Shown here piece after piece: positions 3,213 through 10,059 of a stretch of DNA of 64,000 bases (its first letter is position 1; every line of letters begins with the position of its first letter). Below the pieces are notes generated by a model. That model saw nothing but the letters and a program-made list of their open reading frames with translations. It was not told the DNA's origin and ran no database searches. The stretch is taken from the NCBI GenBank assembly GCA_013265495.1, contig MU057615.1, forward strand, positions 124,001-188,000, written 5' to 3'. The translations under genes and the position numbers were made by a program. The DNA comes from Vicugna vicugna. Lineage: Eukaryota.

Positions 3213-4736
3213 AGAAGTGGCCAGCGGGCAGACACAGGCACAGAGAGGGCGCCGTAGAGCAGTCAGCATGAGGAATGTGCTGTTGGGAGTGGATCCTGGA
3301 AAATCGGGCAGCAGGGTTGAAGGCCCCAGCAGAGAGGACCTCAAAGTAGCAGCTGCAGCAGCCTGAGCTGGTGGAGGGCGAGGGCAGAGCCTCAGGGAAG
3401 GGAACACGGTGCGCCAAGGTTTGGAGGCATGAGCCTTGGGGATGTTGCAAGAGATGCGTGTCAGGGCGCATGTGTGAGCTGCTCACTCCGACCCCTAGGG
3501 ATTTCAAGGATGGGGTCCAGGGTTGCCTTGGGCCCAGGTAAGATGTGCTCCCAGGGACTGAGCACACCTGGGGAGGCCGACCTGAGCCTTGCACTCCTGG
3601 TGAGCTTGGTCACAGCCACAGCAAGGCCCTGCCACTCCAGGCAGGAGGTGGGAGCGCACCAAGGACACCGCCAGCCAGGCTGGTGTTGCCACCCATGCTG
3701 ATGGAGGACAGGCGGGCTGATGAGGGGAAAGGCGCAGCTCTGGCCCCAGCGCGTGCCACGCCGCAGCGCCGTGCTAATGGGTGCCATCTGGACCCTCAGC
3801 GCTCCAGCTGGTGAATTCCCATGCCTCGGGGTGCGGCGCAGAGGACTGTGTGCTTCCATTTTTAGCTGATGTATTCTCCCAGGGAAAGCTTTCAAGTTCA
3901 TGGTGCTACAAGGCTGTTGCACCTCACCTGACTGGCAGTCGTGTGCCCTCGACCCTTGGAGAGAGGAGGACAGAAGACTGCTCACCCGATTCCTGCACCA
4001 GCATCTCCCTTATACTCTTGTTTTCTCTCGGGAAAATAGGGCCCAAGGGATGTGGCCCGGGGTGCACAGTCTCTCATGTCAGAAGAGAAAGGAAAACCCA
4101 GGCCTCTGCCTCCCCAAGGAACTTTTTATCCTTCTTTAATAAGACATCAATTCCAAAATAATAATAATAAAAAAACCAGGAAGGAAGGAAAGAAGGAAAA
4201 GACAGAAAACAAAATAAAACAGAACTGTTCCACGTAAGTTGCAAAAACATCCAAAGACCCATGAGGCAAAGATTCTAAGGGCCCCTAGGTGTTAACGTGA
4301 ATAAAAACTTGTTGACTTAACAATAAAGTATCACATTTATTAACAGAAATTAGAAAATATAGTAATCTCATAATTACTGAAGAGGTGAAAGAAATTCAAC
4401 CATGGCGATTCCTTTTACAGAAAAAACCAACTACTCGTTTCAATAATGAAATAAGGAATTTTATCAAGTATTTGTTAAAAAAAAACTTGTCCCATATCTT
4501 CTCTTGAAAAGTAAGATAAGTACTGAGAGAACTGCTGAATAATCGCAGCCTACCAAGCACGTTTTCCCTCCTGATCTTGAGATGCCGTATGTAACTCTTA
4601 TTTATAAAAAAATAATTAGGAATAAGTAATGCTCTTGTTACAAATTTTTATAATTTTAAATGCTCAAATGGATTAACTAACTTTTGCTGTTTTCACAATT
4701 AAATAGAACATTCTAGTACCAATTCAAAATCCATTG

Positions 4737-5016
4737 TATGAACTTAAATATAAAACAGAAACAGACTTATAGACATAGAATACTAACTTGTGGTTGCCCG
4801 AGGGGAGGTGGGAAGGGACAGACTGGGAGTTCGAGATTTGTAGATACTGACAGGTATATAAAGAATAGACAAACAAGATTATACAAGAGCTTGTGGTAGC
4901 TCATAGTGAAAAAGAATGTGACAATGAATATATGTATGTTCATGTATGACTGAAAAGTCATGCTCAACAGGAAATTGACACAACATTGTAAACTGACTAT
5001 ATAACACAATAAAGAA
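4737..5016 (+). mobile_element. Short young L1 3' UTR insertion
   Basis: Same 3' UTR type as 2900-3210. TSD aaaatccattg at 4726-4736 and 5017-5027. Confidence 0.92.
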
Positions 5017-6197
5017 AAAATCCATTGCAGTACAGAATTCTGAACTTGCTAAACATCAAATCTATAGAATGAATCTGAGATGCGTTATGATTAATTGCTG
5101 GGAAAGAACTACAAATCAGACTAACTAGTGTTTCTACCATTTGTTTAGTTTGTTTCCACATGCACTGACTGTCTTCTGCTGGTCAGAGTGTCATGCTGTC
5201 CCCGCGAGGAGTGTATGCGCCCAGAGTCTGGATTCAGTGGTCACCCACAGCCATTCTCCGTCCTTTGTTTTAGCTGCTACTCCTCTCACTGACTTTTTTT
5301 TTAATTGTAGAGTTTTTTTCCCCTAGAAGTACTTGTTCCACATGCAAAATGAAGCATAGGCTTTTATAACTTGTTTTACGTTTGTATAGTTTGCCTATGA
5401 TTTCTTCTAAACTATTTGCTGGGTTTTGTTTTTGCTTTTGTTTTTTGGTGAATAGGTTTCCTCTGCCTCATTTCACCCTTTAATAGTAAAGAAAATAATT
5501 CTCCTAGCCCCCTTGGAAGCTGCCATTTGAAAATGAGAAATATTTCTATTGTGATCTTATTTATTTTTACTTTTGCTAAGCCATTAAATAACTTAGCACT
5601 GTGTTTTTGTGTGTCCTAAAAGTACATTGTACAAATTACAGACCCGAACCTACCATGCTGCTGCAGCCTGTCATTAACAGCTGTAAAGTGCTGTGTAGGA
5701 GGCGAGAGAGCAGCTCACGTCTAGGCAGGTCATTGTTTTCGTCCTTTGCACAGTGAATGTAGTTTTAAAACTGTATTTTGAGTGATTGGACCAAATTTAA
5801 AACATTAAAACATCTGTGTGGGTGTGTGTGTACTTTCCTCTCAATATTAAAGGGAATTCGGAGTTAGAGAAACCTTTAATACACCTGAGCGCTCTACATG
5901 AAATATCAAATGTCCAAGGCTCACAGCCATGTTTCCATGTTACACACTAGTGTACATTTGTATGAATGTACTTAGAACTCTTAAAGTTACCCTTTTATTT
6001 TAAATGTTTTTCCGAATGTCTAATTTTTTAAAAAATCCTGCATGAAGAAAAAATTCTGTATGTTCAATAATTATATGCTCAAGAGAACAACATAATTATA
6101 GTTAAAGTAACAATAACTAGACTAAAAAGAAGACAAAATCATACAAAGCCGCAAGGCCAGGCCGCTTGGTGCCTTTGGAGGCCACCTGAGCCGCAGA

Positions 6198-7113
6198 CAG
6201 TCGTCCCTCAGGATCCCTGCGGGTTGTCCCAGGACCCCCTCTTCTGGCAGATACCGACATCTGGGGAAGCACAAATCCTTTGTATAAAATGGCATATTTT
6301 CACATAACCTATTTACATCCTCCCATTTTTTTTCATTTATTTGACATTTATTGAACACCTTTAGTATACAAATCTTTACTCCCATCTGAAAGGGTACCAC
6401 TGATGGGCCGTTATCTCTCAGAAAAAATGTATCAGTGCTCCACATTATAGAATGACCAGGAAGAAGCTCGTTCGGCTGGGCAGTTTTTATTAAGGGCCCA
6501 CTGTATGCACAGCCTCCCAGCAGGGTTAGCGGTGAAGGTGTGAGACAGAGCTCTTCTCGCTGTCTCTCCTGCCGTCCCCTTGTGCGTCGCCGGGCTGGAT
6601 GTGTATGAGGGCAGTCTGCAGGTGCTGGAAGTCACACTTTAACTGGTCAACATGAAGTCTGGCATGCTGTCTTTTGTTAGGGGGCTTCTTGCTGGACAGA
6701 ATCTCCAGACGCTCTAGATGCTGAGTATCTGGCCTATGCTTGCTTGGATTTGATTTTCTGCTAAGCGCAAAGACTGTTCTCTGCTGTCCCCAGGCATCCC
6801 GCGTGAGACTGGGTCTCGTGGACCTGCTTGTGCCCTGACTGGTACAGGGGCTCCATGTTGCTGGCCCCACCGGGTCCCGCTCTCCCATATACTTTAAACT
6901 TTAAATCATCTGTTGGTTACTTATAATGCCTAATACAATATAAATGCTAGGTAAATCGTAAATGCAGTGTCAATATTATATAAATAGGGGCCAGCATGGG
7001 ACAAATTCAAGTTTTGCTTTGGGGAACTTTCTGAATTTTTTCCCACAATATCTCCCACCTGTTGGATGGTTAAATCTGTGGGTGTGGTGCTCGTGGACAC
7101 AGACGGCTGGCTG
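6198..7113 (+). mobile_element. MER2-like TcMar-Tigger DNA transposon, split by the GOSR2 retrocopy
   Basis: Left arm cagtcgtccctc...acatcctcccat (6198-6326) and right arm atactttaaa...ggctggctg+TA (6889-7113) join to give the recalled MER2 consensus. Confidence 0.85.
6327..6881 (-). pseudogene. GOSR2: Processed pseudogene of Golgi SNARE GOSR2 (membrin): codons 1-112 plus a non-canonical 3' end
   Basis: ATG at 6856 gives [17 protein letters not shown]. Later frames give [37 protein letters not shown] and SHTFTAN, matching human GOSR2. It is intronless, has four 1-bp deletions, AATAAA signals, an A-tail at 6327-6333, and TSD ctcccat (6320-6326, 6882-6888). Confidence 0.95.
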
Positions 7114-9069
7114 TATTTTCCTTTGATTTCAGAACATTCCTTGAGGTTCACCTGCTGAAGGTGTTGTGAAATGGGAAGGAGGAAGAGGACTTTAGAGGCA
7201 GGAGAAGAGGAGGGCTTGGCCCTCTTGAAAGGAGATGTTGGACTTCAGTGAAATCAGCTGCCAGTTTGCAAATGCCATAGCTATACTTCAGGAATGTGGG
7301 GTTGAAAACCCAAATTTGGTGACTTTTTAAAAAGTATCTTTCGGCAAAGAAAGGCAGGGGCTGGTCAAGGTTGCCCTCCTAAAACGTTCCGTAATATCCA
7401 GCAGGTGGAAGTCAAAATAGGGTTTCAAGCTTATTGCCATCTTCTTTTTCAATCATTTATTTGCTTGATATGATTAGACTTTTATGTTCTGCTTGGTAGG
7501 CAGAGAATATCTAAATTGTGTTGATTCTTCCACAGTTATATAAAGAAAAGAATAATCCAATTATCTAAACTTTGTAAAACATATTACATTTTTTAAACTT
7601 AACAGAGATTCTTTCTATTTCATCAACTGATGTAAATAATAGATGGGAAAACTTTACCACTCCTCTTGTTTACCCGAGGTTTCAAGCATTTCCATACAAA
7701 AATTCAGTTTTTATGCCAATAAATAATAAAGATGACTACACGATAAATTATATTGGACCTCTTACAAGTTAGGTGAAAATAAGTTTTAATATGTGAAAAT
7801 GAGCTGTAGGAAGTAAAAGAATTTTAGATTAATTTTCTCAGGGAAAATGGAAACATCAGATTCTTTATGATAATAATTGTGGCTGGGTTAAATGAAGTAA
7901 AATCCAGTTTCATCGCAGGAGACTCTATGTCATAATTCAGTTTAACTTTGAGTTCGAAAATGGTGTTTAACCACCTGGAATATTAATCGAGTGCAGATTC
8001 TTCAAACTTAAAATAATTCATGAAGATAATAGAGAATGAATCCAATTTATGTTAAATTCAGTTGGTACTTAAATAATCCGTTTTCTTCATGTCTGTGGCC
8101 GGAAATGCAGTGGAGATGAGTGTGGTCCAAGCAGCTGGCATTTCATCTGGATCCACCTGGAGCCTCCTTCTTGCCTCACTCAGAAGCCAAGGTCTTCCCG
8201 TACATTTGCACAGGGCCACTTACCGGATGGGACTGTGGACATCGCTGGGCTGGGTCTGGGGACTAAAAGGACAGCTTGGCAGTGTGGTGGGTCAGACCCA
8301 AAAACCTGAGTACAGCACTGGTGACTCCATGCCTTGGGCATAAATTGTGGCTTCTCTTCTGCTAGACCACGTTCTAAGAGCTGAGACTAAAGGGAAGGCT
8401 CCTGAAAGTTCTGTGATCCTGACTTGACTTGGGGGCCGGAGGCAGCAGACAGAGATGAAAAGGGAAAGGCCATTACTCTCTCTTGTTTGATGACATATTT
8501 AACACAGAATACATTAGAAGTCCAAGTCATTGTCTACTAAGAGACATTTTCTTCAGGAAAATGACACAATGTATTAAATATTCCTTCATAAATAAGCTGG
8601 AGTTGTTAGGTCCGTGGAGGCTGAGCTCACTCTCTCCCCCTACATCCTGGAAGCAAGTGAGTTGACGAGAAACCTGCTTTGTCCCTTCTGATGCACTGGC
8701 CGTGGGCAAGGTGCTGCCCATCAAGAGGGACCCTGCTCTCCTGGGCAGAGCTGCAGAGAAATCACCACCGGAAGCAGCCCCTGCTCTGTGGGTATCAGTC
8801 CACTTCAGTGCCTCGACCCCTGCAGAGGGAGGGATGGGGCCTGGGCTGAGGGGGGCAGTCAGCTGTGCTGGCCTGCCTGGAAGTGCGGGGACCTGACATC
8901 GCTGACTGTACCGGTGAGATGGGGCTGCAGATGGAGCTGCTGGGTACGGGACTGTGTGTTTTTTGCTTTGCACCCACAACATGCATGTGCTAGGCTTTCC
9001 TTTTTAGAACATTCCTGGCTGTTTTATTTAGCTGAGCCTTGAGCGCAAGCATAGACAGTGGGATAGGGG

Positions 9070-9423
9070 TGTGTCTCAGCCAGCTCGTGCTGCCTGTGTG
9101 GGTACCGCAGGCTTTCACAGCTAACGTTGTGTCCCACGGTCTGGAGGCTGGACGTGCAAGATCAAGGGGCCGGCATGGTCATTGCTCTGGTGAGGACTCT
9201 TTGGTTCACAGGCAGCCACCGTCTCACTCTGTCCTCACGTAGCGGAGGGAGAGATCTCTCTTCCCCTTCATGTAGGGCACTAATCCCATCTTGGGGCAGC
9301 GCCCGCACGACCTCATGTAACCCTAATTACATCTCAAAGGCCTTAACTCCAAATACCATAATACAGGGGGTTAGAGTTTCAACAGATGACTTTTGGGAGA
9401 ACACAGTTTTTCAGCCCATAGCA
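9070..9423 (-). mobile_element. MaLR LTR (MLT1A/C-like)
   Basis: Motifs ctggaggctggacgtgcaagatcaagg, agggcactaatcccatc, ctccaaataccat and ttcagcccatagca. Confidence 0.85.
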
Positions 9424-10059
9424 GTATCCATGCATTAGTGAACCCACTTCATTAACATTTTAGTACGAAACTCACCAGACACTGGTACAATCACGAGGGA
9501 GCTTGACTCAGGATATGATAGAAAATAGGGTTAAATTTTGCCCTCATTCAAAGTTCTTATGTTTAATATAAATTTTGAAGCTATTAGACAAATGTGAAAA
9601 TACACATTCTGTGTACATTGTTATTTTGTAATTAAATGAACAAAGTTGTCTCAATTTTCAATATTGCTTTTTCCCTCTTTTTACATATTATGAACCAAGC
9701 ATGTGTAATTTGGAGAACACCTTCCAGCCCACACAGCTTTAAAGATGAATATCCCCATATCCATATTTCATTTTTCTTCCCAAATAGTCTGAGATGAAGA
9801 ATAAGGAACAAAATTTTATAATTATATCAAAAAGGAAAGAAAAGATTATTTCAAACTGGCTAACTCTATTCTGTCTAATTCCATTCTGTTTTATTGTGTC
9901 TAGTCCTGCAATATTTGGTTGATGGAATAAGGTACTGAGAAAGTATGTAACTATATAAATAGCAAAAACAAGCTTTCTGGATCCCAAGGAATGAGTGCGA
10001 TTCTCCCTGAGGAAGCATCCAACCTTGTGCCATAGCACAGCAAGAATGTGGCCTGGGGA

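Follow-up and report, generated by a model that had tools for sequence, protein, structure and literature searches.

Within the window (the whole 64,000-nucleotide stretch of Vicugna vicugna DNA that was analysed), the minus strand from 6881 to 6327 carries GOSR2 sequence from which the introns are missing. Comparison with the genome confirmed this segment as a processed, evidently dead, reverse-transcribed copy of a GOSR2 mRNA that would have consisted of exons 1-4 and an alternative last exon (Table 1). A genome search with the copy returned five matches; one was the copy itself, the other four were segments of contig C8008 arranged as in the gene, and exon 1 of the parent was located in the surrounding C8008 sequence. 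The coding parts of parent exons 1-4 measure 29, 65, 109 and 133 nt (336 nt in total) and are all bounded by AG/GT; exon 5 starts at C8008:1103411 and exon 6 at 1100156. At the protein level the search found one GOSR2 parent and this copy, with no further copies. The parent protein of 212 aa is identical to the Camelidae entry P0225 (n=4), which supports the label "camelid" used in an earlier sequence-only reading of this DNA. The parent introns were precisely removed in the copy, and four junctions coincide with parent splice sites.

Table 1. Features of the GOSR2 retrocopy and its insertion site (window coordinates), with matches to the parent gene on contig C8008
Feature	Position	Strand	Remark
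Host dispersed repeat, part upstream of insertion	6882..7060	-	40 of 40 scored candidates (of 501) match
5' copy of target-site duplication (TSD), ATGGGAG	6882..6888	-	stretchable to 14 nt if mismatches are allowed
GOSR2 5' UTR remnant, 25 nt (exon 1)	6857..6881	-	matches C8008:1115797-1115835, 90% over 39 nt, first codons included
Exon 1 coding, 29 nt, ATG at 6856	6828..6856	-	
Exon 2, one 1-bp deletion	6764..6827	-	C8008:1108646-1108710, 85%
Exon 3, one 1-bp deletion	6656..6763	-	C8008:1107062-1107170, 87%
Exon 4 to c.336, two 1-bp deletions	6525..6655	-	C8008:1105830-1105962, 85%, then GT donor
Alternative last exon from parent intron 4, 191 nt, begins CCTG	6334..6524	-	C8008:1104549-1104743, 81%
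AATAAA, first repeat tail	6486..6491	-	common to parent; read through by template
4 extra nt in copy	6477..6480	-	no counterpart in parent; position approximate
TGA closing 30 open codons after CCTG	6434-6432	-	
Probable poly(A) signal AATAAA, second repeat tail	6347..6352	-	CATAAA in present parent
Further AATAAA near 3' end	6336..6341	-	
7-nt A tract	6327..6333	-	poly(A) remnant or primed A-rich stretch
3' copy of TSD, ATGGGAG	6320..6326	-	
Host dispersed repeat, part downstream of insertion	6197..6326	-	same element continues in 4 of 5 other copies

The stretch from 6856 to 6525 is 332 nt long, against 336 nt (c.1-336) in parent exons 1-4. The sequence-only reading had placed the ATG and the end of homology at these two positions and had explained the length by four 1-bp deletions. 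Both positions were found again on the minus strand, and alignment to the parent agrees with the arithmetic: the copy carries exactly four 1-bp deletions, near c.81, 137, 266 and 311 (about 6776, 6721, 6593 and 6549 on the window). The 30 open codons after CCTG and the AATAAA and A-tail enclosed by one TSD are likewise present in the window. An exon boundary at codon 112 had been given for the human gene, and parent exon 4 does end at c.336, where a GT donor follows; in human, too, the donor of exon 4 lies at c.336+1 (PMC12631098).

The same reading had called the 3' segment unrelated. This is correct with respect to the canonical mRNA but not with respect to the gene, since the 191 nt are parent intron 4 sequence. 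Their sole genome match besides the segment itself has an E value of 4e-42 and sits in the 2,418-nt intron 4, 1,086 nt past the exon 4 donor. Directly before it the parent has a pyrimidine tract followed by CAG, so that the match falls where it had been suggested to look for it, downstream of exon 4 and behind a polypyrimidine-AG acceptor. The pyrimidine fraction before this cryptic acceptor (0.76) is the same as that of the exon 5 acceptor, and only 6 of the 218 AG dinucleotides in intron 4, one of them the true exon 5 acceptor, pass a simple acceptor test. The join between exon 4 and the last exon falls exactly on the donor and the acceptor, and neither side shows any microhomology. It is very unlikely that chance would hit the donor and an acceptor of this kind together, which argues that the template was joined by the spliceosome, and the joining of an upstream GT donor to an AG acceptor that lies within an intron behind a pyrimidine tract is the arrangement of a skipped-type alternative last exon. 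The evidence supports the view that exon 4 of the copied RNA was joined by splicing to an alternative last exon in intron 4, as had been proposed; neither an unrelated origin of the segment nor the lack of a boundary at codon 112, the two results named beforehand as contrary to it, appeared.

Parent intron 4 also contains a candidate cassette exon of about 74-76 nt (C8008:1105238 downward on the gene strand), with AG before and GT after it. Its acceptor is weak, and by eye its peptide resembles the insert of pangolin isoform X4 (P0003), after which exon 5 is read out of frame; the candidate is possibly a conserved poison exon that shifts the frame.

The alternative last exon holds two sense-strand copies of a short dispersed repeat tail, which we take to be an L2-like 3' end. 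A tail profile built from 30 of 169 genome hits scored 22.7 and 9.7 bits at two sites of intron 4, both inside the exon, against -9.7 at the next sense site and a maximum of 2.5 bits in 40 shuffles; the pattern drew in part on the parent and the copy, so that the second tail scores too high, an effect that is smaller for the first tail and the A-versus-C count. In the second tail, CATAAA in the parent stands against AATAAA in the copy. When the other positions of an 18-nt pattern are kept constant, the genome contains AATAAA 169 times and CATAAA 19 times (controls 1 and 0), so AATAAA is the common state of the repeat family and the parent's C is probably derived. This suggests that the signal in the parent probably changed from AATAAA to CATAAA after copying and that the copy keeps the older state. 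The 169 hits against 1 control hit, together with the profile scan, show that the signal belongs to a sense-strand tail of a dispersed repeat. It lies 13 nt from the A tract in the copy (17 in parent spacing), inside the range of 10-30 nt expected of a poly(A) signal; 13-17 nt is a normal distance from such a signal to the 3' end. The further AATAAA is only 2 nt from the A tract, too close to be the signal. Although the A tract is merely 7 nt and overlies an A-rich stretch at the same place in the parent, true polyadenylation at the end of the copy is likely. The only AATAAA in the present parent intron 4 is that of the first tail, 33 nt past the acceptor, and with it the parent could still produce a shortened exon.

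In the parent the last exon stops after 14 codons, which gives 112 + 14 = 126 aa, whereas the 30-codon frame in the copy requires the 4 extra nt, placed before the parent's stop. The corresponding spacing is 7 nt in the parent and 11 in the copy; among 30 copies of the repeat family it is 7 nt in 12, 11 nt in 4 and other values in 3, and it was not found in 11. The family is nearer the parent's 7, so the 4 nt were probably inserted in the copy. The protein of ~142 aa predicted by the sequence-only reading depends on that probable insertion and was not upheld; on weak evidence, about 126 aa seems a better estimate for the product of the template. The SNARE domain of GOSR2 (Pfam V-SNARE_C) comprises residues 124-185, downstream of the end of exon 4 at residue 112, as had been stated, and the membrane anchor is C-terminal. 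At either length (126 or 142 aa) the predicted product is without the SNARE domain and the C-terminal anchor.

The copy is inserted in a dispersed repeat that is presumably a Tigger/MER2-like DNA transposon. Both window flanks match four of five other copies of this repeat and meet at, or a few bases from, the insertion point. As the flanks are contiguous in those four, the ATGGGAG duplication, a 7-nt direct repeat, is attributed to the insertion. The host repeat is 78-83% identical here to the five other copies, which are 83-91% identical among themselves; the local substitution rate therefore looks raised, and no absolute age in years is given for the retrocopy. Close to the insertion, on its upstream side, the host repeat has a 7-nt tandem duplication (6892-6905) that is absent from the five other copies shown; a search for tandem repeats in window 4000-10000 found none.

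Copy and parent differ at 29 of 205 0-fold, 12 of 88 2-fold and 6 of 39 4-fold sites, that is by 14% at 0-fold and 15% at 4-fold sites, in addition to the four frameshifts. Equal divergence over site classes is expected for a copy without constraint, and the copy has decayed neutrally, with its frame disabled. The copy has Ile41 and Ser46, as do all five outgroup proteins compared, whereas the parent and P0225 have Leu41 and Ile46. Because it retains these two pre-camelid residues, the copy probably predates the radiation of living camelids. That at least one such RNA was expressed in the germline or early embryo, as supposed from the start, would follow from the inheritance of the insertion. 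In the coding part (window positions 6525-6856), differences from parent A/T to copy G/C exceed the reverse (27 vs 13), with A>G (13) and T>C (11) evenly split; the last exon is unskewed (11 vs 9).

Short GOSR2 forms were surveyed in 265 GOSR2 proteins, including 120 of 411 exon-4 matches, candidates from a search of proteins shorter than 148 aa (97 of 98) and cluster members. None of the 265 carries the motifs of the fossil exon's tail, and none of 9 candidates from a tail-peptide search does. After exon 4, 66 proteins continue into exon 5, 62 skip it and 65 read through the donor, the last class containing many raw genomic gene calls; 1 ends there, 30 were classed as "other" (5 of these being exon 5 variants) and 41 are without a recognisable exon 4 end. 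Named read-through entries of 134-144 aa come from human (I3L1K7), sheep, cattle, pig, panda and sperm whale, and the tails of the human, sheep and whale entries match the beginning of parent intron 4. Truncation of GOSR2 after exon 4 is thus already annotated, by another route (donor read-through). The models that skip exon 5 (165 aa; 62 of 265) are widespread in birds, reptiles and mammals; they retain the anchor and lose most of the SNARE motif. A metagenome scan gave 41 loci, of which none matches the last exon and none looks mammalian, the best exon 4 DNA match being 73% over 132 nt. Part of the last exon is contained in 18 of 24 sequencing runs listed, with a share of last-exon words of 0.92 in 4 and 0.08-0.12 in 14; this was not counted as evidence of use.

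Several other tails were considered. That of cat isoform X5 (P0018), which begins with Pro, was compared with the 40-kb parent region and is not supported as an orthologue: its score of 45 is below the shuffle maximum of 63 and the match lies elsewhere, though frameshifts could hide a relationship. Hominoid "GOSR2-like" proteins (P0125, P0128, P0197, P0198, P0203-P0207) switch after residue 112 to a common unrelated tail. The longer gibbon tail has no Pfam match and, as we take it, resembles LRRC37; this suggests that in the hominoid forms a block of exons 1-4 was duplicated and became joined to other exons. In decayed Myotis copies of GOSR2 (P0129, P0130, P0133, P0134, P0144, P0191) homology stops at the exon 4 boundary, and four of them have one common tail, which has no match in the camelid locus. 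Neither the hominoid nor the Myotis tails match the parent region beyond shuffles, except one at 40 vs 38, far downstream. Exon 4 may be a recurrent truncation point in GOSR2.

We have high confidence in an origin by way of an ancestral GOSR2 alternative last exon with a repeat-derived poly(A) end, followed by LINE-1 retrocopying and neutral decay. A GOSR2 pre-mRNA, present in the germline or early embryo of an ancestor in the camelid lineage, had exons 1-2-3-4 spliced together and its normal exon 4 donor joined to a cryptic acceptor lying 1,086 nt inside intron 4, a step that the sequence itself records. Cleavage and polyadenylation would have followed ~195 nt later, behind the AATAAA of an old sense-strand repeat tail. 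The LINE-1 machinery, to which the TSD and A tract point, would then have reverse-transcribed this RNA and placed the copy in the DNA-transposon remnant, with duplication of the target site. The reading frame of the template most likely specified ~126 aa with the N-terminal helical region, the SNARE motif and anchor being absent, and the short form was most probably a minor intronic-polyadenylation product that merely diverted some transcript from the full-length form. In the parent the signal would later have become CATAAA, with the acceptor and the upstream AATAAA kept.

A template switch during reverse transcription could also join an mRNA to unrelated or unspliced sequence, and chimeric retrocopies exist in general. 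However, the second part comes from the same gene, on the same strand and downstream, and it is joined exactly from GT donor to YAG acceptor with zero microhomology, which refutes a template switch for practical purposes. The splice could instead be real and the RNA longer, if reverse transcription was primed internally on the A-rich stretch of a partly processed or stop-carrying cassette transcript. Such priming would fit the short A tract over an A-rich stretch of a parent that has no AATAAA at the site today, and the early stop in the exon, as in a poison cassette. That the template read through the earlier AATAAA of the first tail counts against the preferred account. However, the AATAAA in the copy is spaced normally from the 3' end and is the common state of its repeat family, and a cassette is opposed by a simple motif scan, in which the 195-nt exon showed no donor-like site and the first one came 319 nt past the acceptor. 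Internal priming is accordingly judged unlikely.

The short form might also be a regulated product conserved across mammals, either a soluble N-terminal fragment or a tissue-specific switch reducing the amount of full-length GOSR2. Outside CpG the last exon is no more diverged than 0-fold coding sites (12.1% vs 13.2%, Fisher p 0.76), although 4-fold sites are no more diverged either (6 of 39), which makes this test non-discriminating. The parent acceptor is intact, but the exon shows 5 indel events in 186 aligned nt between copy and parent, and the parent signal has decayed. The entries of 134-144 aa ending in intron 4 in six mammals (I3L1K7 in human) would be in line with a conserved short form, but they continue past the donor instead of being spliced to this exon. 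According to a review (PMC12631098), mutations in exons 5/6 leave a muscle-predominant human isoform intact, the structure of which is not given in the available text. A conserved regulated product is on balance improbable. A broader proposal, that intron-4 truncation of GOSR2 is an old regulated mammalian switch acting through repeat-derived poly(A) sites and giving an N-terminal-only, muscle-predominant form, with splicing as the route in the camelid ancestor and donor read-through in the human and ruminant models, is quite doubtful. If it is true, the product would be the form invoked to explain why muscular dystrophy results from exon 1-4 mutations and not from exon 5-6 mutations, and the retrocopy would put a date on the switch and record the decay of its signal in camelids.

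The retrocopy provides DNA-level evidence of an ancestral germline or embryo GOSR2 transcript without SNARE motif and membrane anchor, and preserves a repeat-derived poly(A) signal from before its probable loss in the parent. It has a modest bearing on the clinical question, raised in the part of PMC12631098 available, of short GOSR2 isoforms and the split between muscle disease and epilepsy; a single retrocopy cannot tell a functional isoform from splicing noise. A link of the last exon to the TDP-43 "GOSR2" event was considered and rejected, because that TDP-43-dependent change lies in the 3' UTR, as given in the available parts of PMC9509890, PMC13343711 and 10.1101/2023.02.03.527079. Among the matches listed in a GOSR2 literature search, which did not target camelid pseudogenes, none concerns this exon or retrocopy by title or start of abstract.

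Both the mechanism and the use of retrocopies as splice fossils are known, and this locus is a clean new example for GOSR2. Processed pseudogenes have reportedly been treated as fossils of splice variants by Shemesh et al. (2006, PNAS) and Huang et al. (2008, Genome Res), and Podlaha and Zhang (2009) are said to have treated retrocopies as records of such variants. These splice-variant studies are cited in the available portions of PMC5470649 and PMC4772013. As in those pseudogenes, an intronless copy keeps an exon junction foreign to the canonical mRNA; unlike them, the camelid-lineage GOSR2 case also preserves an older state of the poly(A) signal. Comparable intronic ends are described, in the parts of the sources available, for IL18R1-Short, where an L2-derived intronic poly(A) site truncates the protein (PMC13232192), and for an ACAD9 exon with an L2-derived poly(A) site that is repressed by MATR3/PTBP1 (PMC6108849). 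In both, as proposed for GOSR2, an old repeat 3' end within an intron ends the transcript early and C-terminal domains are lost, and ACAD9 shares with the GOSR2 fossil a new acceptor near the repeat. In contrast to both, the GOSR2 case is known from a DNA fossil alone, and the L2 identity of its repeat is presumed. According to the available part of the preprint (PMC13232192), less than 1% of TE-derived signals show expression; of three places in its supplement that name GOSR2, at least two are count rows. The predicted product resembles I3L1K7 (143 aa) and other annotated short forms in having the same first 112 residues and no SNARE motif or anchor. However, forms of the I3L1K7 type extend exon 4 through its donor into the start of the intron, whereas the RNA preserved in the fossil would have been spliced to a site 1,086 nt further on.
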